DNA from: Escherichia phage vB_EcoM-101117BS1 | Direction: 5' to 3' (one strand) | Sequence record: MZ234018.1 | Length of the DNA stretch: 64,000 bases | Shown here: one piece after another, positions 3,329-36,902 of the stretch | How the letters are laid out: each line of letters starts with the position of its first letter | How positions within the stretch are numbered: the first letter of the stretch is position 1 | Program-made: the position numbers and the translations under genes | Notes under the pieces: generated by a model | Told to the model about the DNA's origin: nothing | Databases searched by the model: none | The model's input: the letters and a program-made list of their open reading frames with translations, nothing else

Positions 3329-4333
3329 ATGAAAACTCGTTCTCAAATTGAAGATATGGTTCGTAATGCCAGCTATACCCGTAATGTTATGACATTTTTG
3401 TGCCAAAATAATTTAGACCCTGATAGAGTTAATAGTTCCATTCACTTTAAGTATATGAATAGCAGTGAATGGTTACGTCATTTTAGTAAAGCGGGATATA
3501 TTACACAAATGACTGCTCGTGAGCAGCTCACCGATTTCTGTAAAACTATTGATTATAAAAATCCTCTATTTGTTCAAGGCGTTGGTCAGAGTAAGGTCGA
3601 TTTATCAACAGGATTTTTTAATCCAAATCATTATCGTATTGAATGGAGATTTATTGCTCTATTTCGTAAACAATTAAAGCAAATTTTGTCTACTGCTAGT
3701 CGATTAAAAGGCTCTGATATTAACTTAAAGAATCTGAAATTTGATGGTTATACTCTTCAGATGGAAGTAAGACCATTAAAAGAAAATAATAGAACTGCAC
3801 GAATTAGCTTTAAACCTAATACAAAAAATTCTCTTTCAATTTGTGAATGTCTTAAATCACAGTTGACAGAAGCATTTAAGTATATGGATGTTGTTGCTGC
3901 TGTTCAATCTAAGATTTCGCAGCATTTCGAACGATTTAAATTAGATACGACAACATATGAACTTGATATGATCGTTTCATTTAAATATGATTTTTTGAGA
4001 AAGGACGAAGTTACACAAGAGAAAAAACCTGAACCCCAAACTAATTACTCATCAAACGATCCTAAATTTTGGATGTATAGTTCAGATAATAATGATGCAT
4101 GGAAATTTAATAAAGTGAATTTTCTTCCTGTTGAAAATCCGAGTCTTAAACCTGTTGAAAAATGGCACGCTGACGCGATTGAGAAGTCTATCAAGGCAGT
4201 AGATGATGAACTCGTTAAAGCAACTAATGAAGTGTTAGAAGCTGAAAAGATGCTAGAAAAAGCTCAAGAAAAAGTAAAAAATCTCACGAAGCAACGTTCT
4301 AAATTGAACAACGCACTAAATGCACTAAACTAG
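3329..4333 (+). CDS. hypothetical protein with C-terminal coiled-coil-like tail
   Basis: 334-aa ORF; C-terminus KATNEVLEAEKMLEKAQEKVKNLTKQ. Confidence 0.55.
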   Translation: MKTRSQIEDMVRNASYTRNVMTFLCQNNLDPDRVNSSIHFKYMNSSEWLRHFSKAGYITQMTAREQLTDFCKTIDYKNPLFVQGVGQSKVDLSTGFFNPNHYRIEWRFIALFRKQLKQILSTASRLKGSDINLKNLKFDGYTLQMEVRPLKENNRTARISFKPNTKNSLSICECLKSQLTEAFKYMDVVAAVQSKISQHFERFKLDTTTYELDMIVSFKYDFLRKDEVTQEKKPEPQTNYSSNDPKFWMYSSDNNDAWKFNKVNFLPVENPSLKPVEKWHADAIEKSIKAVDDELVKATNEVLEAEKMLEKAQEKVKNLTKQRSKLNNALNALN

Positions 4334-4362
4334 TTTACTTCGCCACAAGGATGTGGTATAAT
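4333..4362 (+). promoter_or_regulatory. T4-type early promoter
   Basis: GTTTAC 4333-4338, 18-bp spacer, TGGTATAAT with TATAAT 4357-4362. Confidence 0.6.
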
Positions 4363-4390
4363 GTTCTTACTTTCTACTGAGGAGATTAAT

Positions 4391-5392
4391 ATGACTCGCA
4401 ACGAATATATTAAATCGTTCAACAGCGTTATTGATGATAAAGCTATACCGATGTTTGGTCAAAATATCGTTCTTTCTATTATCAATCAATGGCTCAATAG
4501 TGTTGATGCAAGTATTGTTTCTTCTACTAAATTTATTCATGAAATTCGTAAAATTTCTAGCCGTGTAGATAAAGATGACATTAAGAAAACCTTTAAAGGG
4601 TCTCGTCTTCTTTCATACTTAGTCAACAGAGATATTCTTAGTAAATTTGGGAAAGAAATTAAACGAACTAAAGATGTAGTAGGATATAATTGGTTCGGTG
4701 ATGTTAATTCTTATCATCTTAATAATAAAGAAGACCCTGAGAATATTTTTACTCGTCGTTGGATTAGTAATTTCAGACTTTTCAAAGGACAAATTCTAAA
4801 ATCAGCTTCTAAATTATGTTATGGCGATTATCGTCAAATTCATCCTTTGGCTTCTGATATGATTATCGTAAAAGAATATGAGCTTGATGAAAATAAAGTA
4901 GCTATTTTTGTGAATTATGGATTTTTTACACCAAACGCTAACCAAAAGAATATTAATAAATTTTTCTCAATTGCTAGCACTATAACTCGTCAGTTAGAGA
5001 CTGCATTACTTTGTATGGAAACAGTAGAAAATATTCATACATATCCTTTTAAGAATATATGCGGATGGGAAGGATATAAAATTGTAATTAGTCTTCGTGA
5101 AGTGAAATGTGCTTATTCACCTACTGATAAAGAAATTTATCAACAAAAATGTGAGGAAATTGTGAATACTCCTAAAGAAGAAACTACCCTTGAGGAACTA
5201 ATGGATAATCTTGATGATTCGCCTGAACCGGCAGAAATTCGTCCAGAAGTTATTGCATTAGAAAAAGCTTATAAAGAAGTTCTAGAAATTTCTAATAAAG
5301 CACAGAAAGAATATGAGCAGGCTAAAAGGATTTGGGAAGAATCTGTCAATCGTCTTGATCGTCTTGAACAAGCTTTACAGTTAATTAAGTAA
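4391..5392 (+). CDS. hypothetical protein with C-terminal coiled-coil-like tail
   Basis: ATG 4391 after GAGGAG SD; C-terminus EKAYKEVLEISNKAQKEYEQAKRIWEESVNRLDRLEQALQ. Confidence 0.55.
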   Translation: MTRNEYIKSFNSVIDDKAIPMFGQNIVLSIINQWLNSVDASIVSSTKFIHEIRKISSRVDKDDIKKTFKGSRLLSYLVNRDILSKFGKEIKRTKDVVGYNWFGDVNSYHLNNKEDPENIFTRRWISNFRLFKGQILKSASKLCYGDYRQIHPLASDMIIVKEYELDENKVAIFVNYGFFTPNANQKNINKFFSIASTITRQLETALLCMETVENIHTYPFKNICGWEGYKIVISLREVKCAYSPTDKEIYQQKCEEIVNTPKEETTLEELMDNLDDSPEPAEIRPEVIALEKAYKEVLEISNKAQKEYEQAKRIWEESVNRLDRLEQALQLIK

Positions 5393-5444
5393 TTTAAAGC
5401 CAAGGATGGCTCGGAGTATAAATCATTAACCAAGTGAGAAGAAT

Positions 5445-6374
5445 ATGAAAACTCGTAAACATTATATTGATTATTTTGACAGTCTTATTACTAAACACCG
5501 TAATTATCAGATCGGGCACAGAGCAGTAATCAATAATATTCTTCGTGATTTCCTTCAATATGTTGGTCAGGAAAATCATATCTGTAAAGATACTCAAAAC
5601 GCTTATTCTCATTCGTTAGGCAATTTGCTTGAATGGTTTAAACGTTCTCGTATGTTATCTTCTACTGTAGCTCGTGATAACATTAAAAACTTTATGAAGC
5701 CGAGCTTCATTAAATCTGAGACATCTATAACCGATTTGGTTGAATTTACTATTGTTAATGATGTTAAAAAGACTCATTTGGCTGATTGGTTTTCTACCAT
5801 TCCTGAAACCAAATTTGCTGATAAATTTGCTTGTCAATTCAATGACCAAGTGAATATGCTTTTTAAGCATGCTCGCAAACTGTTTACCGCGGGCGATGCT
5901 CGCACAAATACAGTTCATGTTAAGGACTGGGTTATTGCTGATGAAGTAACACACAAGCCAGGTGGTTCATCAGTATTAATTAATATTCAAGTTCCTTATT
6001 ATTACTCACGTAATCTCGGCACCATGACAGCTAGAGAAATTAATAAGCACAACAAAACTATTCGTTCGTTGTCTTATAAACTCCGCATGATGTTAAAAAT
6101 TATGGATGTAGTGGAAATGTATGACGAAACCGAAGATAATGGTTCAATGTTATACAGTTTACGCATTCTAATTAAACTGAAGAACCCTAATACGTATAAG
6201 CCAGTTGTAAAAGAGCCTAAAGTAGAAAAGGTTGATAATCTGAGTGAAGAACGCGAATATCTCAGTGCCCGTTTGATTGAAGTTGAAAAACAGATTGAAG
6301 AGCATACTAAAGTTATTAAGGCTTTAACCACCAAAGCAAATGGTTTACGTGATGCTATTGAGGTACTGAAATGA
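5445..6374 (+). CDS. hypothetical protein with C-terminal coiled-coil-like tail
   Basis: 309-aa ORF; C-terminus [44 protein letters not shown]. Confidence 0.55.
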   Translation: MKTRKHYIDYFDSLITKHRNYQIGHRAVINNILRDFLQYVGQENHICKDTQNAYSHSLGNLLEWFKRSRMLSSTVARDNIKNFMKPSFIKSETSITDLVEFTIVNDVKKTHLADWFSTIPETKFADKFACQFNDQVNMLFKHARKLFTAGDARTNTVHVKDWVIADEVTHKPGGSSVLINIQVPYYYSRNLGTMTAREINKHNKTIRSLSYKLRMMLKIMDVVEMYDETEDNGSMLYSLRILIKLKNPNTYKPVVKEPKVEKVDNLSEEREYLSARLIEVEKQIEEHTKVIKALTTKANGLRDAIEVLK

Positions 6375-30964: not shown

Positions 30965-32392
30965 GTGGTAGAAATTATTCTTTCTCATCTCATATTTGAT
31001 CAAGCTTATTTTTCAAAAGTTTGGCCATATATGGATTCAGAATATTTTGAAAGTGGTCCAGCTAAAAATACATTCAAATTAATTAAATCTCATGTCAATG
31101 AGTATCATAGCGTTCCATCTATTAATGCGTTAAATGTTGCATTAGAAAATAGTTCATTTACTGAAACAGAATATTCTGGTGTAAAAACACTTATTTCAAA
31201 ACTGGCTGATTCTCCGGAAGACCACAGTTGGTTAATAAAAGAAACAGAAAAATATGTTCAGCAAAGGGCGATGTTTAATGCTACGTCTAAAATAATCGAA
31301 ATTCAAACTAATGCTGAGCTTCCTCCGGAAAAACGAAATAAGAAAATGCCGGACGTTGGTGCTATTCCTGACATTATGCGACAAGCATTATCAATTTCAT
31401 TTGATAGTTACGTTGGTCATGATTGGATGGATGACTACGAAGCACGTTGGCTATCTTATATGAATAAAGCTCGTAAGGTTCCATTTAAACTCAGAATTCT
31501 AAACAAAATTACTAAAGGCGGAGCTGAGACTGGAACACTGAACGTTTTAATGGCTGGCGTTAACGTTGGTAAGTCATTAGGATTGTGTTCATTGGCAGCA
31601 GATTATTTGCAGCTCGGACATAATGTTCTTTACATTTCCATGGAAATGGCAGAAGAAGTCTGTGCTAAGCGTATTGATGCTAATATGCTTGATGTTTCTC
31701 TTGATGATATTGATGATGGGCATATTTCTTACGCTGAGTATAAAGGAAAAATGGAAAAATGGCGTGAGAAATCTACCCTTGGTCGTTTAATCGTTAAGCA
31801 ATATCCTACTGGTGGAGCAGACGCTAATACATTTCGATCACTTTTAAATGAATTAAAGCTCAAGAAGAATTTTGTTCCAACAGTCATTATTGTCGACTAT
31901 CTAGGTATTTGTAAATCTTGCCGCATTAGAGTTTATTCAGAAAATAGTTACACAACTGTTAAAGCTATCGCAGAGGAATTGCGTGCTCTGGCTGTTGAAA
32001 CCGAAACTGTTCTTTGGACTGCAGCACAGGTCGGTAAACAAGCTTGGGACTCTTCCGATGTTAACATGAGCGATATTGCAGAATCTGCTGGTCTTCCAGC
32101 AACAGCTGATTTTATGCTTGCGGTCATTGAAACCGAGGAGCTAGCAGCTGCTGAACAACAACTCATTAAGCAAATCAAATCACGATATGGCGATAAGAAT
32201 AAGTGGAATAAGTTTTTAATGGGTGTTCAAAAGGGAAATCAGAAATGGGTAGAAATTGAACAAGATTCTACTCCAACTGAAGTGAGTGAAGTAGCAGGTT
32301 CACAACAGATTCAGGCTGAACAGAATCGCTATCAAAGAAACGAATCAGCTCGAGCTCAGTTAGATGCTTTGGCAAATGAATTAAAATTTTAG
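30965..32392 (+). CDS. 41: replicative DNA helicase gp41
   Basis: 475 aa; GTG start; Walker A GVNVGKS; matches T4 gp41. Confidence 0.95.
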   Translation: MVEIILSHLIFDQAYFSKVWPYMDSEYFESGPAKNTFKLIKSHVNEYHSVPSINALNVALENSSFTETEYSGVKTLISKLADSPEDHSWLIKETEKYVQQRAMFNATSKIIEIQTNAELPPEKRNKKMPDVGAIPDIMRQALSISFDSYVGHDWMDDYEARWLSYMNKARKVPFKLRILNKITKGGAETGTLNVLMAGVNVGKSLGLCSLAADYLQLGHNVLYISMEMAEEVCAKRIDANMLDVSLDDIDDGHISYAEYKGKMEKWREKSTLGRLIVKQYPTGGADANTFRSLLNELKLKKNFVPTVIIVDYLGICKSCRIRVYSENSYTTVKAIAEELRALAVETETVLWTAAQVGKQAWDSSDVNMSDIAESAGLPATADFMLAVIETEELAAAEQQLIKQIKSRYGDKNKWNKFLMGVQKGNQKWVEIEQDSTPTEVSEVAGSQQIQAEQNRYQRNESARAQLDALANELKF

Positions 32393-32421
32393 TTTACAAG
32401 CTGACAAGACTATGGTATAGT
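32392..32421 (+). promoter_or_regulatory. T4-type early promoter
   Basis: GTTTAC 32392-32397, 18-bp spacer, TGGTATAGT. Confidence 0.55.
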
Positions 32422-32450
32422 AGTCTTGTTGGTTAAATGAGGAGATTGTT

Positions 32451-32633
32451 ATGGAATTGGTAAAGGTAGTTTTTATGGGGTGGTTTAAGAATGAAAGCAT
32501 GTTTATTAAAGAAATCACAATGATGAAAGATGACGTTCAATGGGCTACTACTCAATATGCTGAAGTTAATAAAGCATTAGTTAAAGCTTTCATTGATGAC
32601 AAGAAAGTGTGCGAAGTGGATTGCCGAGGATAA
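32451..32633 (+). CDS. dmd: Dmd, inhibitor of host RnlA/LsoA toxins
   Basis: 60 aa MELVKVVFMGWFKNESMF...; matches T4 Dmd as recalled. Confidence 0.75.
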   Translation: MELVKVVFMGWFKNESMFIKEITMMKDDVQWATTQYAEVNKALVKAFIDDKKVCEVDCRG

Positions 32634-32634
32634 T

Positions 32635-32892
32635 ATGCATATTGTTTTATTTAAACCTACTCCGTATAACGTCAGGAAAAATACTCAATTCAAAGCACTT
32701 ATTGCAGATACGTGGGAATTGGTGTTAGATATTCCAGCAGAAGAAAGTCCTCCATTTGGTCGAGTGGAATTTATTAAGTTTGCTGTACGTCCTACGAAGA
32801 GGCAGATTCGTCAGTATAAAAGGTATTTTCGTAAAATCGTTAAGCTAGAGAAACAGTTTGTAACATGTGATTACGCAGAAGTTTTAAAATAG
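32635..32892 (+). CDS. small basic protein at the T4 61.4 position (possible TifA-like ToxIN inhibitor)
   Basis: 85 aa from ATG 32635; Arg/Lys-rich C-terminus; adjacent to dmd. Confidence 0.4.
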   Translation: MHIVLFKPTPYNVRKNTQFKALIADTWELVLDIPAEESPPFGRVEFIKFAVRPTKRQIRQYKRYFRKIVKLEKQFVTCDYAEVLK

Positions 32893-32894
32893 CT

Positions 32895-32924
32895 GTTTAC
32901 TTTTGTTGGAAATTGAGATACTAT
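32895..32924 (+). promoter_or_regulatory. T4-type early promoter
   Basis: GTTTAC 32895-32900, 18-bp spacer, TACTAT 32919-32924. Confidence 0.5.
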
Positions 32925-32952
32925 ATAAACATAAACTACTGAGGAGATTATC

Positions 32953-33246
32953 ATGAAAAAATTTATTTTTGCTACAATTTTTACTTTGGCTTCTTGTGCT
33001 GCTCAGCCTGCTATGGCAGGATATGATAAAGATTTGTGTGAATGGTCTATGACTGCAGATCAGACTGAAGTTGAAACTCAAATTGAAGCGGATATTATGA
33101 ATATCGTTGAGCGCGATCGTCCTGAAATGAAAGCTGAAGTGCAAAAACAACTTAAGTCTGGTGGTGTAATGCAGTATAATTATGTTCTGTATTGCGATAA
33201 AAACTTTAATAACAAAAATATCGTAACCGAAATCACAGGCGAATAA
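32953..33246 (+). CDS. sp: Spackle (Sp), periplasmic superinfection-exclusion protein
   Basis: 97 aa with cleavable signal peptide ending AQPAMA; matches T4 Sp. Confidence 0.75.
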   Translation: MKKFIFATIFTLASCAAQPAMAGYDKDLCEWSMTADQTEVETQIEADIMNIVERDRPEMKAEVQKQLKSGGVMQYNYVLYCDKNFNNKNIVTEITGE

Positions 33247-33247
33247 T

Positions 33248-33880
33248 ATGATTTATTATATGCACAAAAATCCACCGTTTAAATACGGTAAATTTCCTGA
33301 TGCACAATGTTATAATATAACGCCTGATGAAAATAACCGTGGATATCTTATTGGCACAATTTTTGTAATTGTTAAAGATAACGAAATCGTTGCCTGGGCA
33401 GATTTTAAAGGTACAACATATGATGTTAATCCGGTGCCTTTCACATATTACAATTTAATGGATTTGGCATACGATTATAATTGGTTTAATCATGACACTT
33501 TGGCTCATATTGAAGGTGTAGGATTTGATATTTCATATTCGGAATACACTTTAAGCCCTATGAGTCGAGCCCATAAAGAACCTGAATATTTTTCATTTAG
33601 GAAACGTGTAAACTTTAAACGCAGCACAGAGTATGTCGGTGGAATCTTTGTTAAAGATAATCGAATTATTCGTATTAATTATCCTTTGAGCGTTAGTCAA
33701 AAAGATATTGATGTTGATTTAGATTTCACTGAAAATAATATTAATAATATTGCTTCTGTGTATTTTGGTATCGATCACAAAATTGTAATATGTGGATATG
33801 AATTACCGTTTGAAGAACAGCCTAAAGTAAAAGTTTCTATTGACGATCAAATTTTTAATGCTTTTATGAATAAAGGTTAA
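33248..33880 (+). CDS. hypothetical protein at the T4 61.2 position (possible AdfA-like)
   Basis: 210-aa ORF; C-terminal tail IDDQIFNAFMNKG is shared with the next ORF. Confidence 0.45.
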   Translation: MIYYMHKNPPFKYGKFPDAQCYNITPDENNRGYLIGTIFVIVKDNEIVAWADFKGTTYDVNPVPFTYYNLMDLAYDYNWFNHDTLAHIEGVGFDISYSEYTLSPMSRAHKEPEYFSFRKRVNFKRSTEYVGGIFVKDNRIIRINYPLSVSQKDIDVDLDFTENNINNIASVYFGIDHKIVICGYELPFEEQPKVKVSIDDQIFNAFMNKG

Positions 33881-33884
33881 TATG
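33836..33884 (+). repeat. 49-bp direct repeat, copy A (3' end of ORF plus junction to next start)
   Basis: tctattgacgatcaaatttttaatgcttttatgaataaaggttaatatg; 3 mismatches to copy B. Confidence 0.8.
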
Positions 33885-34238
33885 TATAGTTCTGAATTTT
33901 CATATTTAAAAATGGAAAAAATTTCATACGATTTTATAGATGAAAAGGTTTATTACAGTTTCCATGAACCGCGTTTTAATAGTGAGGTTGGGTTTATTGT
34001 AGTAAAAGACAATTTCATTTTAAAGATATATTCGGCATTAAAGGATTTTCACTACGAAAATATTAACCTAAAATTTGATAAAGAAAACGTTCGTAATTGT
34101 GCAGTAACAATTACAGGAAATAAAGGTACATGTGTTATGCTATCTGATGAAATTAATGATTTGCTAAATGATGCAGAAAATATTACTGCGCCATCTATTG
34201 ATGACCAAATTTTTAATGCTTTTATGAATAGAGGTTAA
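33882..34238 (+). CDS. hypothetical protein
   Basis: 118-aa ORF ending IDDQIFNAFMNRG. Confidence 0.45.
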   Translation: MYSSEFSYLKMEKISYDFIDEKVYYSFHEPRFNSEVGFIVVKDNFILKIYSALKDFHYENINLKFDKENVRNCAVTITGNKGTCVMLSDEINDLLNDAENITAPSIDDQIFNAFMNRG

Positions 34239-34242
34239 TATG
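34194..34242 (+). repeat. 49-bp direct repeat, copy B
   Basis: tctattgatgaccaaatttttaatgcttttatgaatagaggttaatatg. Confidence 0.8.
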
Positions 34243-34404
34243 AAAACATATAAAGAATTTATTAAAGAAGATATGGTCGCTGGAGATTCAGGTGGTAATC
34301 CTGAAAATATCTCTACTGGAACAACATCAGGTGCTGTAGTAAATAAAGGTCCTGAACAGATTCCTAAAAAGAAAAAAGAGGAATCTAAAGAAAAAGAAGA
34401 GTAA
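34240..34404 (+). CDS. hypothetical small Lys/Glu-rich protein
   Basis: 54-aa ORF filling the gap to gene 61. Confidence 0.35.
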   Translation: MKTYKEFIKEDMVAGDSGGNPENISTGTTSGAVVNKGPEQIPKKKKEESKEKEE

Positions 34405-34406
34405 AA

Positions 34407-35435
34407 ATGTCATCAATACCTTGGATTGATAATGAGTTTGCGTATCGTGCATTGGCTCATTTACCTAAATTCACACAAGTAAATAATAGTTCAACTTTTA
34501 AATTGCGGTTTAGATGTCCTGTTTGTGGAGATTCAAAAACCGACCAGAATAAAGCTCGTGGATGGTATTATGGTGATAATAATGAAGGAAATATTCATTG
34601 TTATAACTGTAATTATCATGCACCAATCGGAATATATTTAAAGGAGTTTGAACCTGATTTATATCGTGAGTATATCTTTGAAATAAGAAAAGAAAAAGGT
34701 AAAAGTCGTCCAGTAGAAAAACCTAAAGAACTTCCTAAGCAACCTGAGAAGAAAATAATTAAATCTCTTCCGTCATGTGTTAGATTAGATAAACTGGCGG
34801 AAGACCATCCAATTATAAAATATGTAAAAGCTCGTTGTATTCCAAAGGATAAATGGAAATATCTTTGGTTTACAACCGAATGGCCTAAATTAGTTAATAG
34901 CATAGCACCGGGAACATACAAAAAGGAAATTTCTGAGCCTCGTCTTGTTATTCCAATTTATAATGCTAATGGAAAAGCTGAGTCTTTTCAAGGACGTGCA
35001 TTAAAGAAAGATGCTCCTCAAAAATATATCACCATTAAAGCTTATCCTGAGGCAACAAAAATTTACGGTGTTGAACGAGTTAAAGATGGTGATGTATATG
35101 TTCTAGAAGGACCTATAGATTCACTTTTTATTGAAAATGGTATAGCTATTACAGGTGGTCAATTAGACCTAGAAGTTGTTCCATTTAAAGATAGACGAGT
35201 GTGGGTTTTAGATAATGAACCTCGTCACCCTGACACTATCAAACGAATGACTAAATTAGTTGATGCTGGAGAAAGGGTTATGTTTTGGGATAAATCTCCC
35301 TGGAAATCAAAAGATGTCAATGATATGATTAGAAAGGAAGGTGCAACCCCTGAACAAATTATGGAATATATGAAAAATAATATTGCCCAGGGGTTGATGG
35401 CTAAAATGCGGCTATCTAAATATGCTAAGATTTAA
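34407..35435 (+). CDS. 61: DNA primase gp61
   Basis: 342 aa; N-terminal zinc ribbon CPVCGDS...CYNC and TOPRIM domain. Confidence 0.95.
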   Translation: MSSIPWIDNEFAYRALAHLPKFTQVNNSSTFKLRFRCPVCGDSKTDQNKARGWYYGDNNEGNIHCYNCNYHAPIGIYLKEFEPDLYREYIFEIRKEKGKSRPVEKPKELPKQPEKKIIKSLPSCVRLDKLAEDHPIIKYVKARCIPKDKWKYLWFTTEWPKLVNSIAPGTYKKEISEPRLVIPIYNANGKAESFQGRALKKDAPQKYITIKAYPEATKIYGVERVKDGDVYVLEGPIDSLFIENGIAITGGQLDLEVVPFKDRRVWVLDNEPRHPDTIKRMTKLVDAGERVMFWDKSPWKSKDVNDMIRKEGATPEQIMEYMKNNIAQGLMAKMRLSKYAKI

Positions 35436-35632
35436 ATCAACCCAACTAAAGCAAATGCTAAATCTACAAATGTATCAAGAGTAACTACTGGAATATTAAT
35501 ACCATGCGCAATTGCAACAGGTGATAGAATAAAGTTCCAGAGTAAAATTCCTACCATAGCAGAAATAGTAAAAGCTATACGTTTTTTATTACCTTTTATG
35601 GCATTAACAAGTGCCATTAATTTTTGTACCAT
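35432..35632 (-). CDS. small membrane protein encoded antisense to the early-gene block
   Basis: 66 aa with two hydrophobic segments; AAGGAGG SD 4 nt upstream of ATG on the - strand. Confidence 0.4.
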   Translation of the reverse strand: MVQKLMALVNAIKGNKKRIAFTISAMVGILLWNFILSPVAIAHGINIPVVTLDTFVDLAFALVGLI

Positions 35633-35645
35633 ATGTCCTCCTTAT

Positions 35646-35669
35646 TGCTTTATATATTTATTGTATAAT
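35646..35669 (+). promoter_or_regulatory. MotA-dependent middle promoter candidate upstream of gene 56
   Basis: TGCTTTA 35646-35652, 11-bp spacer, TATAAT 35664-35669. Confidence 0.5.
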
Positions 35670-35703
35670 TAATCTACTAACCCATGAATTGAAAGGAAAA
35701 ATA

Positions 35704-36222
35704 ATGGCTTACTTTAATGAATGTGCTCATTTGATCGAAGGTGTTGATAAAGCAAATCGTGCATATGCTGAGAATATTATGCACAATATTGACCCACTGC
35801 AGGTTATGCTTGATATGCAGCGGCATTTACAGATTCGTTTGGCTAATGATAAACCAGAAACAAATCGTCATCCTGATTCACTTGAAACCGCAGGAGAAGT
35901 TCTTGCTTGGTTGCGAAACCAAGACGATTATATCGCAGATGAAACTCGCGAACTATATACTTCTCTTGGTGGTATGAGTAATGGTGAAAAAGAAGCTTCT
36001 GCTGTATGGAAACCTTGGAAGAAACGTTATTCTGAAATGCAATCCAAGAAAATTCAAGATTTATCTCCCGAAGATCAGCTTGAAATTAAATTTGAACTGA
36101 TTGACCAATTTCACTTTTTCATGAATAAATTTATTGCTCTTGGAATGTCAGCTGAAGAAATCTTTAAACTTTATTACCTGAAAAATGCTGAAAACTTCGC
36201 TCGTCAAGACCGAGGTTATTAA
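35704..36222 (+). CDS. 56: dCTP pyrophosphatase gp56 (MazG-like)
   Basis: 172 aa from ATG 35704 (MAYFNECAHLIEGVDKA...). Confidence 0.7.
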   Translation: MAYFNECAHLIEGVDKANRAYAENIMHNIDPLQVMLDMQRHLQIRLANDKPETNRHPDSLETAGEVLAWLRNQDDYIADETRELYTSLGGMSNGEKEASAVWKPWKKRYSEMQSKKIQDLSPEDQLEIKFELIDQFHFFMNKFIALGMSAEEIFKLYYLKNAENFARQDRGY

Positions 36223-36422
36223 TGGCTCGTTTAAATAAGCGTCAGCTTAAGAAAGCCCATAAGAAACGTATTGACCAGCTATTTAAAGATTATAACAAGG
36301 AGCTCGTATGTGAGCTCTTAACTAATCAACTTCGTATGGTTGATTGGGTTATAGAAGAAGGTCCTGACGAAATTTTTGTCAGCGAAGAAGCCTTAAAATT
36401 AATTATAGAGCATTCAAAATGA
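36222..36422 (+). CDS. hypothetical protein
   Basis: 66-aa ORF. Confidence 0.4.
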   Translation: MARLNKRQLKKAHKKRIDQLFKDYNKELVCELLTNQLRMVDWVIEEGPDEIFVSEEALKLIIEHSK

Positions 36423-36628
36423 AATTTGATTTCTACGCGTGGCAAAAAGCCGGGAGACCGGCTACTCGAGCATTTGGTTCTGATGGATATAATATTAGAG
36501 CCCATTGGAAATTTAATGCTCCAGAAGATTATTCTCCGGTAATTATTAACGGTGATGTTGTTATATTAACTAAAATCGGATATTTTAACGTTCCGCGAGA
36601 ATTTATTATAAATAATCATGTAATTTAA
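36419..36628 (+). CDS. hypothetical protein
   Basis: 69-aa ORF. Confidence 0.4.
   Translation: MKFDFYAWQKAGRPATRAFGSDGYNIRAHWKFNAPEDYSPVIINGDVVILTKIGYFNVPREFIINNHVI
36607..36614 (+). promoter_or_regulatory. T4 late promoter (TATAAATA) upstream of soc
   Basis: TATAAATA located 30 nt upstream of the soc ATG. Confidence 0.5.
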
Positions 36629-36644
36629 ATAAAAGGAGAATTAC

Positions 36645-36902
36645 ATGGCTAGTACTCGCGGTTATGTTAATATCAAAACATTTGACCAAGCAGTTGATGG
36701 TGGTACAATTCAGGGTAAAGAAATTTCTGTAGCTTTCCCTCTTTATTCTGATGTTCACAAAATTTCTGGTGCTCATTATCAGACATTCCCTTCTGAAAAA
36801 GCAGCATATTCTACAGTATATGAAGAAAATCAGCGTACTGAATGGATCACTGCTAATGAAGGTCTTTGGACTGTTACGCCAACTCCAGGTATTGGTGGTT
36901 AA
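36645..36902 (+). CDS. soc: small outer capsid protein Soc
   Basis: 85 aa MASTRGYVNIKTF...; matches T4 Soc as recalled. Confidence 0.85.
   Translation: MASTRGYVNIKTFDQAVDGGTIQGKEISVAFPLYSDVHKISGAHYQTFPSEKAAYSTVYEENQRTEWITANEGLWTVTPTPGIGG

Follow-up and report, generated by a model that had tools for sequence, protein, structure and literature searches.

Genes 41 and 61 of Escherichia phage vB_EcoM-101117BS1 (sequence record MZ234018.1) enclose a string of six small genes, and the question raised by this locus is whether they form a counter-defence island, as a first-pass annotation made from the DNA letters alone had proposed for positions 32451-34404. The window analysed in this study is a 64,000-nucleotide (nt) stretch of this genome, to which coordinates refer unless another locus is named. 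Sequence comparison points with high probability to the T4-type early accessory-gene island of Tequatrovirus as the best overall explanation, with orthologues of the anti-toxins Dmd, TifA and AdfA, the protein Spackle, a 118-amino-acid (aa) paralogue of AdfA, cassette exchange and processing of gp61.1. The island itself is known biology, the region having been described as one that "may be an anti-TA island" (TA, toxin-antitoxin) with other genes as candidate anti-toxins (Srikant, Guegler & Laub, 2022; PMC9391042), and the additions made here are the 118-aa member of the AdfA family and the features of gp61.1. The counter-defence proposal agrees with the published anti-TA island but does not hold for Spackle, and confirmation of the island matters mainly as correct annotation.

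The segment comes from a Tequatrovirus (T4-like) phage, with positions 32300-34500 being 100% identical to Escherichia phage 303Ecol101PP and near matches to this 2.2-kb stretch occurring in 664 phage records. Six open reading frames (ORFs), all on the + strand and with the boundaries first annotated, lie between gene 41 on the left (30965-32392, + strand, 99.2% identical to T4 gp41) and gene 61 on the right (34407-35435, + strand, 99.4% identical to its T4 counterpart); the T4 reference proteins for all identities are those of NC_000866. The island genes are separated by 1-2 nt, except for 58 nt before dmd and 60 nt before sp, and their G+C content ranges from 24 to 36%, with the minimum at the 3' end of adfA and in the 118-aa gene. 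Every one of the six matches a Pfam and/or PHROG family at E < 1e-30, and because of these family matches and the near matches in 664 records, they are regarded as genuine genes and not as ORFs arising by chance. None of the six proteins had a match in scans with PADLOC and NCBIfam.

The first two genes encode orthologues of characterised anti-toxins. The product of dmd (61.5; 32451-32633, + strand, 60 aa), which had been recognised as Dmd from its sequence, matches Pfam PF17587 over its full length (residues 1-60/60, 153.8 bits against a cut-off of 27) and is 98.3% identical to T4 Dmd, differing by T19I. T4 Dmd directly inhibits the toxins RnlA and LsoA according to the literature (PMC9391042), and the orthologue would likewise bind RnlA/LsoA. 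The gene that starts 2 nt past the dmd stop (61.4; 32635-32892, + strand, 85 aa; DUF7279, phrog_2375) had been identified with T4 61.4 and TifA by position, and its product proved 97.6% identical to T4 gp61.4 over the full 85 aa and 57% identical to RB69 TifA; gene 61.4 has been renamed tifA as the gene for the ToxN inhibitor (PMC9391042). TifA, which binds RNA as well as ToxN, holds the toxin trapped in a ribonucleoprotein complex (PMC10853763), suggesting that the orthologue, together with RNA, would bind and trap this endoribonuclease. It retains the basic residues K55, R56 and R59 (counted in the translation), which are those mutated in a published TifA-RB69 variant (PMC10853763), and differs from the T4 protein by C61Y and I83V.

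The third anti-toxin orthologue, AdfA, is encoded by the 210-aa gene (61.2; 33248-33880, + strand), which had been placed at the T4 61.2/AdfA position. Its product matches PF23813, "Anti-DarT factor A", end to end (residues 1-210 against profile positions 1-211, 461.7 bits, E 3.2e-139) and is thus a full-length member of the family of RB69 and T4 AdfA, with 72.9% identity to T4 gp61.2 and 81% to RB69 AdfA. Gene 61.2 is given as adfA, the anti-DarT factor, in a passage of PMC9391042 that cites LeRoux 2022, and the orthologue would bind the DNA ADP-ribosyltransferase DarT. Alignment with the T4 proteins therefore upholds both of the assignments first made by position, 61.4 and 61.2, and the homology searches gave no unrelated housekeeping function to the ORFs that had been left unassigned. 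Taken together, Dmd, TifA and AdfA are orthologues of experimentally characterised, stoichiometric inhibitors of the toxins of host TA systems.

The AdfA of this phage is a mosaic, as residues 1-60 are 89% identical to RB69 AdfA against 44% to T4 AdfA, while residues 106-196 are nearer to T4. In RB69 AdfA, residue 164 decides the binding and neutralisation of DarT1, Arg being inactive and His, which is present in T4 and most T-even phages, being active (PMC11257639). The corresponding residue here is N167, neither the neutralising His nor the non-neutralising Arg, and among 17 aligned representatives the position is His in all other Tequatrovirus-type sequences and Arg in the RB69 type. The Asn allele recurs in 303Ecol101PP and in one IMG/VR contig and is therefore not a sequencing error; exact-pattern scans of IMG/VR with the Asn and His codons gave 1 and 0 matches, respectively, numbers that are uninformative on allele frequency. 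An Asn that occurs naturally at the only position known to set specificity offers a ready-made test of the tuning of the AdfA target range.

Several observations weigh against a direct transfer of anti-toxin activity to these orthologues. Position 41 of TifA is Phe as in wild-type T4, and the Ser or His of strong inhibitors is not present; F41S and F41H strengthen the inhibition of ToxN by T4 TifA (PMC9391042, PMC10853763), so that with this weak T4-type residue a single tifA copy may be insufficient against toxIN, as in T4. Because AdfA carries Asn where His or Arg decides the outcome and where RB69 AdfA needs His for DarT1 neutralisation, activity against DarT1 cannot be assumed from the alignment. 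Moreover, T4 deleted for adfA shows no phenotype on DarTG1, another DarT being the probable target (PMC11257639). These points bear on potency in the case of TifA residue 41 and on the predicted target range in the case of AdfA Asn167, not on family membership.

Between tifA and adfA lies sp (61.3; 32953-33246, + strand, 97 aa), the product of which had been identified as Spackle with a signal peptide. This identification stands, with a match to PF25676 (152.3 bits, residues 1-96/96), 93.8% identity to T4 Sp and an N-terminus that reads in the translation as a Sec-type signal sequence, MKKFIFATIFTLASCAAQPAMA followed by G, the hydrophobic segment ending in AMA just ahead of this G. Spackle serves superinfection exclusion and acts as an inhibitor of the tail lysozyme gp5 (PMC7677548), and the protein of this phage would be exported to the periplasm and block the tail lysozyme of superinfecting T-even phages. 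Its role is phage-versus-phage, and it is no counter-defence protein.

The island therefore resembles the T4 anti-TA island dmd-tifA-sp-adfA-61.1 (PMC9391042) in its position between genes 41 and 61, in gene order, in the orthology of five of the six genes at 73-98% and in an early-promoter-like site likewise upstream of dmd. It differs from the T4 island by the extra 118-aa gene between adfA and 61.1, by the mosaic adfA with its RB69-like N-terminus and Asn at the specificity position, and by the small substitutions in TifA and Dmd named above. The 118-aa and 54-aa products had been left as uncharacterised candidates for additional inhibitors; the 54-aa ORF is T4 61.1, which is indeed uncharacterised in the literature searched, whereas the 118-aa ORF belongs to the AdfA family.

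The 118-aa gene (33882-34238, + strand; phrog_4122, "RB32ORF033c" in an older annotation) has no counterpart in the T4 locus, and in the T2 locus it stands directly after sp, in the place of adfA; T2 has been described as naturally lacking adfA (PMC11257639). Its product matches the Pfam AdfA profile with 31.9 bits against a cut-off of 27, covering only profile positions 113-211. Alignment of the 118-aa family with the AdfA family by hhalign gave a probability of 98% and an E-value of 2e-13 for residues 20-118 against AdfA residues 110-210, much of this score stemming from a common 14-residue tail; with the tail removed, residues 31-74 still aligned with AdfA residues 125-169 at E 2e-4 to 7e-4, at a low probability (27-44%). 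Outside the tail the two proteins share about 27-36% identity and must have diverged long ago. In the 118-aa protein, the counterpart of the AdfA specificity residue is N72, a position variable between N, H and D and set between the invariant pairs N69-V70 and C73-A74, as would be expected if the same surface contacts a variable target. These comparisons support that the 118-aa gene encodes a putative single-domain paralogue of AdfA, which would share with it the C-terminal domain and the helix of the specificity residue, has the same tail with its DDQIFNAFM core, and differs from it in having one domain instead of two, the N-terminal AdfA half being missing; DarT binding by this protein is putative.

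Structure prediction agrees with this relationship. The AlphaFold2 (AF2) model of the 118-aa protein (predicted local distance difference test, pLDDT, 82; predicted template modelling score, pTM, 0.71) shows five strands, a helix at 67-78, a further strand, a helix at 89-101, a floppy linker and a detached tail helix at 106-115. The same order of secondary structure is found twice in the AF2 model of AdfA (pLDDT 68), where strand-helix-strand recurs at residues 2-90 and 100-181 before a tail helix, and AdfA is accordingly predicted to consist of two repeats of a domain made of a five-strand sheet, a helix and a strand, followed by the C-terminal helix. In Foldseek searches of each model against the BFVD entries of the other family, reciprocal matches were obtained (E 2.6e-4 and 1e-3). 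From the repeated order in a model of moderate quality, it is suggested that AdfA may be a tandem duplication of the domain seen singly in the 118-aa protein; the duplication is not demonstrable from the AdfA sequence, with a BLAST E-value of 0.024 and only 11 columns aligned by hhalign. If the relationship holds, the AdfA family has a wider and more modular make-up than published accounts give it, comprising a one-domain form, a tandem two-domain form and a docking-like tail.

The 118-aa ORF was found in 337 phage records, in about 293 of them at >= 90% amino-acid identity, and orthologues in other genera are 42-51% identical and keep 34 invariant residues. This is a narrow family, for which phmmer run exhaustively over 1.84 billion representatives returned only three true relatives, and a word-indexed search with the same protein returned only five clusters at 75-99% identity. 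With only three real relatives, remote homology gives no clue to the function of the 118-aa protein. The idea that this ORF is a functionless partial copy of adfA in decay would fit its alignment with the C-terminal half of AdfA only, the near-identical 49-nt 3' end common to both genes and the lack of a known consequence of its absence from T4. It is nevertheless highly improbable in view of its conservation in these records and across genera, its own Shine-Dalgarno sequence and ATG, the confident, compact fold of its model and its presence as the sole family member at the locus in 141 records. As a functional single-domain paralogue, the 118-aa protein would most likely bind or inhibit a DarT-like or other toxin through the surface of helix 67-78, the counterpart of the AdfA specificity site. 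Phages of the T2 type, which published comparisons score as adfA-negative, carry this paralogue at the same spot, and this could confound correlations between genotype and DarTG-resistance phenotype.

The DDQIFNAFM core of the tail is invariant in AdfA (T4, RB69 and this phage), in the 118-aa family (T2, this phage and Gaprivervirus EAWsc9) and in a 145-aa ORF of EAWsc9. The copies differ by synonymous codon changes, indicating that selection acts on the peptide. This pattern raises the alternative that the AdfA family is defined by the tail, which would dock onto a common phage or host hub, with the globular domains varying and toxin binding being secondary. Such docking would account for an invariant core with synonymous changes in three protein types, including the 145-aa EAWsc9 ORF that is otherwise little similar, and for the appearance of the tail in both AF2 models as a detached, low-confidence helix past a flexible linker, as expected of a docking motif. 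On the other hand, DarT1 binding in a two-hybrid assay can be turned on or off by changing the single residue 164, which belongs to the globular C-terminal domain (PMC11257639), and no partner is known for the tail, so the docking alternative is considered unlikely relative to toxin binding by the globular domains.

Two other explanations of the tail were rejected. No convincing register is apparent for it as a sliding-clamp binding motif, and a MotA-box middle promoter as the main cause of the conservation of the tail DNA disagrees with the RB69 and EAWsc9 copies, which break the box and keep the peptide. The tail DNA (33859-33882 and 34217-34240) does hold TGCTTTT about 12 nt upstream of TAATAT and could serve in addition as the middle promoter of the gene that follows; TGCTTTT is one mismatch from the MotA-box core, TGCTTtA.

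The DNA encoding the tail also forms a 49-nt direct repeat that delimits the 118-aa cassette. Copy 1 (33836-33884, + strand) encodes the tail of AdfA, SIDDQIFNAFMNKG, and takes in the stop codon as well as the Shine-Dalgarno sequence and ATG of the next gene, and copy 2 (34194-34242, + strand) carries 42 tail-coding nt identical to the 3' end of T4 adfA. The two copies are identical at 46 of 49 positions (94%), and their spacing of 358 nt equals the cassette of the 118-aa gene exactly in length. T4 has the arrangement that a precise deletion from one repeat to the other would leave, its adfA 3' end being nucleotide-identical to copy 2. With respect to gene content, T4 has adfA only, T2 the 118-aa gene only and this phage both. 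Junction-specific searches of 50,697 phage records found the adfA-to-118 junction of both genes in 157 records, the sp-to-118 junction of the T2 type without adfA in 141 and the N-terminal half of AdfA, which marks all AdfA carriers, in 486, and the locus is therefore a three-state polymorphism. This pattern fits the microhomology-driven recombination described for the same region (PMC9391042), suggesting that the 118-aa gene may be gained and lost through recombination between the 49-nt tail-coding repeats. In T2, the 12-nt spacer between sp and the 118-aa gene, TTAGAGGTTAGT (T2 locus 2489-2500), agrees at 10 of 12 positions with the 12 nt immediately preceding the ATG in the tail repeat, ATAGAGGTTAAT; either it is left over from a tail-bearing gene that was deleted, or it simply reflects conservation around the Shine-Dalgarno sequence.

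Gain and loss of this kind would also be expected if the interval were a hyperplastic region that gathers unrelated accessory cassettes between two conserved replication genes, the clustering of anti-toxins being incidental. Gene content indeed varies by genus, RB69 having imm, imm.1 and four other small ORFs and EAWsc9 a different set; Spackle and Imm serve superinfection exclusion, not counter-defence, and the 118-aa cassette comes and goes by recombination. The order dmd-tifA-sp-adfA is, however, conserved across genera, and T4, T2, RB69 and this phage all have three anti-TA genes with experimental support that adjoin each other and are transcribed together. Purely incidental clustering thus appears rather doubtful, and a T4-type accessory island with an anti-toxin core is preferred. 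Compared with the anti-CRISPR and anti-restriction islands of other phages, this island is similar in its clustered small early genes, stoichiometric inhibitors and cassette-like gain and loss, and dissimilar in that its targets are TA toxins, it has no regulator of the anti-CRISPR-associated (Aca) type and a superinfection-exclusion gene is aboard.

Further ORFs of the related loci are candidates for accessory or anti-defence functions. In RB69, imm and imm.1 (superinfection immunity) lie between tifA and sp, adjoining sp, and two further ORFs lie upstream of dmd, of which the 105-aa one is 86% conserved in Gaprivervirus EAWsc9; both are without a Pfam match. These genes lie at 4012-4690 and 5153-5899 of the RB69 locus (L004) and at 836-1153 of the EAWsc9 locus (L006). 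In the latter, a 113-aa ORF (L006 1367-1708) follows dmd in the position of tifA, and its residues 34-64 give a weak match to the Dmd Pfam family (19.1 bits, below the cut-off), suggesting that it may be a second, diverged Dmd-like gene replacing tifA.

The last gene of the island, 61.1 (34240-34404, + strand, 54 aa), encodes a protein 96.3% identical to T4 gp61.1. The N-terminus, MKTYKEFIKE, is identical at eight of ten residues to the capsid-targeting sequence (CTS) MKTYQEFIAE, and Glu10 followed by Asp completes an I-x-E cleavage site of the type cut by gp21. Internal proteins are sent by the CTS to the core of the prohead, and the sequence is cleaved off by the gp21 protease, an enzyme that cuts after Glu (PMC8442874, PMC5694885). 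A relaxed CTS pattern matched only IPII, IPIII and 61.1 across T4 positions 17-24 kb and 50-160 kb plus this window, the sequence of which corresponds by position to the rest of the T4 map; IPI shares only the first seven residues (MKTFKEF) with T4 gp61.1 and not the rest of the pattern.

Moreover, gp61.1 resembles the major capsid protein gp23 around its own cleavage site. Residues 2-38 align ungapped with gp23 residues 57-93 at 43% identity (E 2e-8 in a two-sequence search), with a score of 80 against 29 +/- 4.5 for shuffled sequences (z about 11; none of 2000 shuffles as good), and a search of the PDB with gp61.1 returned gp23 as the top match (E 0.0085). Glu10 of gp61.1 aligns with Glu65 of gp23, the residue after which maturation cleavage occurs, and residues 11-38 have their counterpart in the beginning of mature gp23*, known as the N-fist. 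This 25-residue N-fist of gp23* contacts four neighbouring subunits and helps to form the Soc site (PMC9958956). Nucleotide identity in the aligned region is 51%, with 32% of third codon positions matching, and the similarity is old. Among 14 gp61.1 homologues from three genera, the termini vary while E10, D11, M12 and the fist-like core are invariant, and a site of a hydrophobic residue, any residue and Glu, with Asp-Met after the predicted cut, is retained in all 14.

The simplest reading suggested by these features is that gp61.1 may be a prohead-targeted, gp21-processed peptide that mimics the N-fist. Its CTS-like N-terminus would direct it to the core of the prohead, and gp21 would cut it after Glu10, releasing a 44-residue peptide similar to the N-fist of gp23*. 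With the CTS-bearing internal head proteins of T4, it shares the CTS-like start and the I-x-E motif at the same position, and it is set apart from them by its much smaller size (44 residues after the predicted cleavage), a T4-type form that is not basic, the lack of a nearby late promoter and a mature part resembling the gp23 N-fist and no internal protein. Some of these differences, with others, speak against packaging. No copy of the late promoter TATAAATA occurs in 32380-34460, the nearest on the + strand being at 36607, although gp61.1 made early could persist into the late period. The predicted mature peptide of the T4 type carries a slight negative charge (net -2), in contrast to the internal proteins, which are basic; the MKTY start is missing from the RB69 homologue; and no report of gp61.1 in virions was found in the literature searched, in which gp61.1 is uncharacterised and its CTS-like and gp23-like features are, as far as found, undescribed.

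An early, unpackaged gp61.1 would instead act in the cytoplasm, as a gp23-like decoy or inhibitor of a host factor that recognises the gp23 N-terminus, such as a capsid-sensing immune receptor, a chaperone or EF-Tu. The early counter-defence neighbourhood and the missing late promoter suit such a decoy, as does a conserved core that is the gp23 N-fist segment, and major capsid proteins are known to trigger defence systems, Lit/Gol and CapRel being examples. A cytoplasmic decoy would have no need, however, of a CTS-like start and an exactly aligned cleavage site, and the similarity ends just short of the Gol region. The decoy is hence held to be somewhat improbable, and prohead targeting with gp21 processing is retained as the simpler reading. 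Through the match to the CTS and the N-fist, a conserved orphan gene of T4 acquires a directly testable function, and packaging of gp61.1, if confirmed, would mean that a capsid studied in great depth has one component more.

The tail of gp61.1 is Lys-rich and then acidic. An A6 run (34371-34376, + strand) lies inside 61.1, and the in-silico loss of one A from it yields exactly the T6-type 62-aa isoform (P0023). This isoform is present on 17 contigs, has a strongly basic tail (net +6 vs -2) and is encoded by an ORF that overlaps the start of gene 61. The two natural isoforms of gp61.1 thus differ by a single homopolymer slip.

The two additions can be combined into a bolder and rather tentative proposal, which we regard as possible but not probable. 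Here gp61.1 would be a fourth, overlooked capsid-targeted protein of T4, delivered by its CTS and cut by gp21 after Glu10, with the free 44-residue N-fist peptide either occupying docking sites of the shell or being injected as, or acting as, a decoy for capsid-recognising host factors; in addition, AdfA, the 118-aa protein and the 145-aa protein of Gaprivervirus would make up a modular family of toxin inhibitors, defined by the DDQIFNAFM tail and exchanged as cassettes at the tail-coding repeat. If so, phages called adfA-less, e.g. T2, would still carry a functional half-size family member.

Transcription of the island is probably early. A T4 early-promoter-like site (32393-32421, + strand), consisting of TTTACA, a 17-nt spacer and TATAGT extended by a preceding TG at the -10 element, lies 30 nt ahead of dmd and scores 10/12 in a consensus scan, in which the total number of sites was no greater than in shuffled sequence. 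Its position agrees with that of the early promoter reported to drive dmd-tifA in T4 (PMC9391042). With transcription starting from this promoter, just 3' of gene 41, the closely coupled small genes would be read through one after another; no terminator-like site was found in the island by scan. A second promoter is possible in the 60-nt spacer between tifA and sp (32893-32952, + strand), where GTTTAC (32895-32900), an 18-nt gap and TACTAT precede the GAGG Shine-Dalgarno sequence of sp; this candidate was read by eye and scores under the scan threshold, and a promoter downstream of tifA is mentioned for T4 (PMC9391042). An Rfam E-value scan of 32000-35000 detected no RNA family.

Beyond the island, the interval between genes 61 and 56 is without a dam methyltransferase gene, unlike that of T4, and its layout is RB69-like. 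A 66-aa hydrophobic ORF on the - strand (35432-35632), 3' of gene 61, is annotated in EAWsc9 as "holin family protein". Gene 56 (dCTPase) follows directly, and then come two small ORFs and an 85-aa ORF that is presumably soc (35611-36902 for the stretch as a whole).

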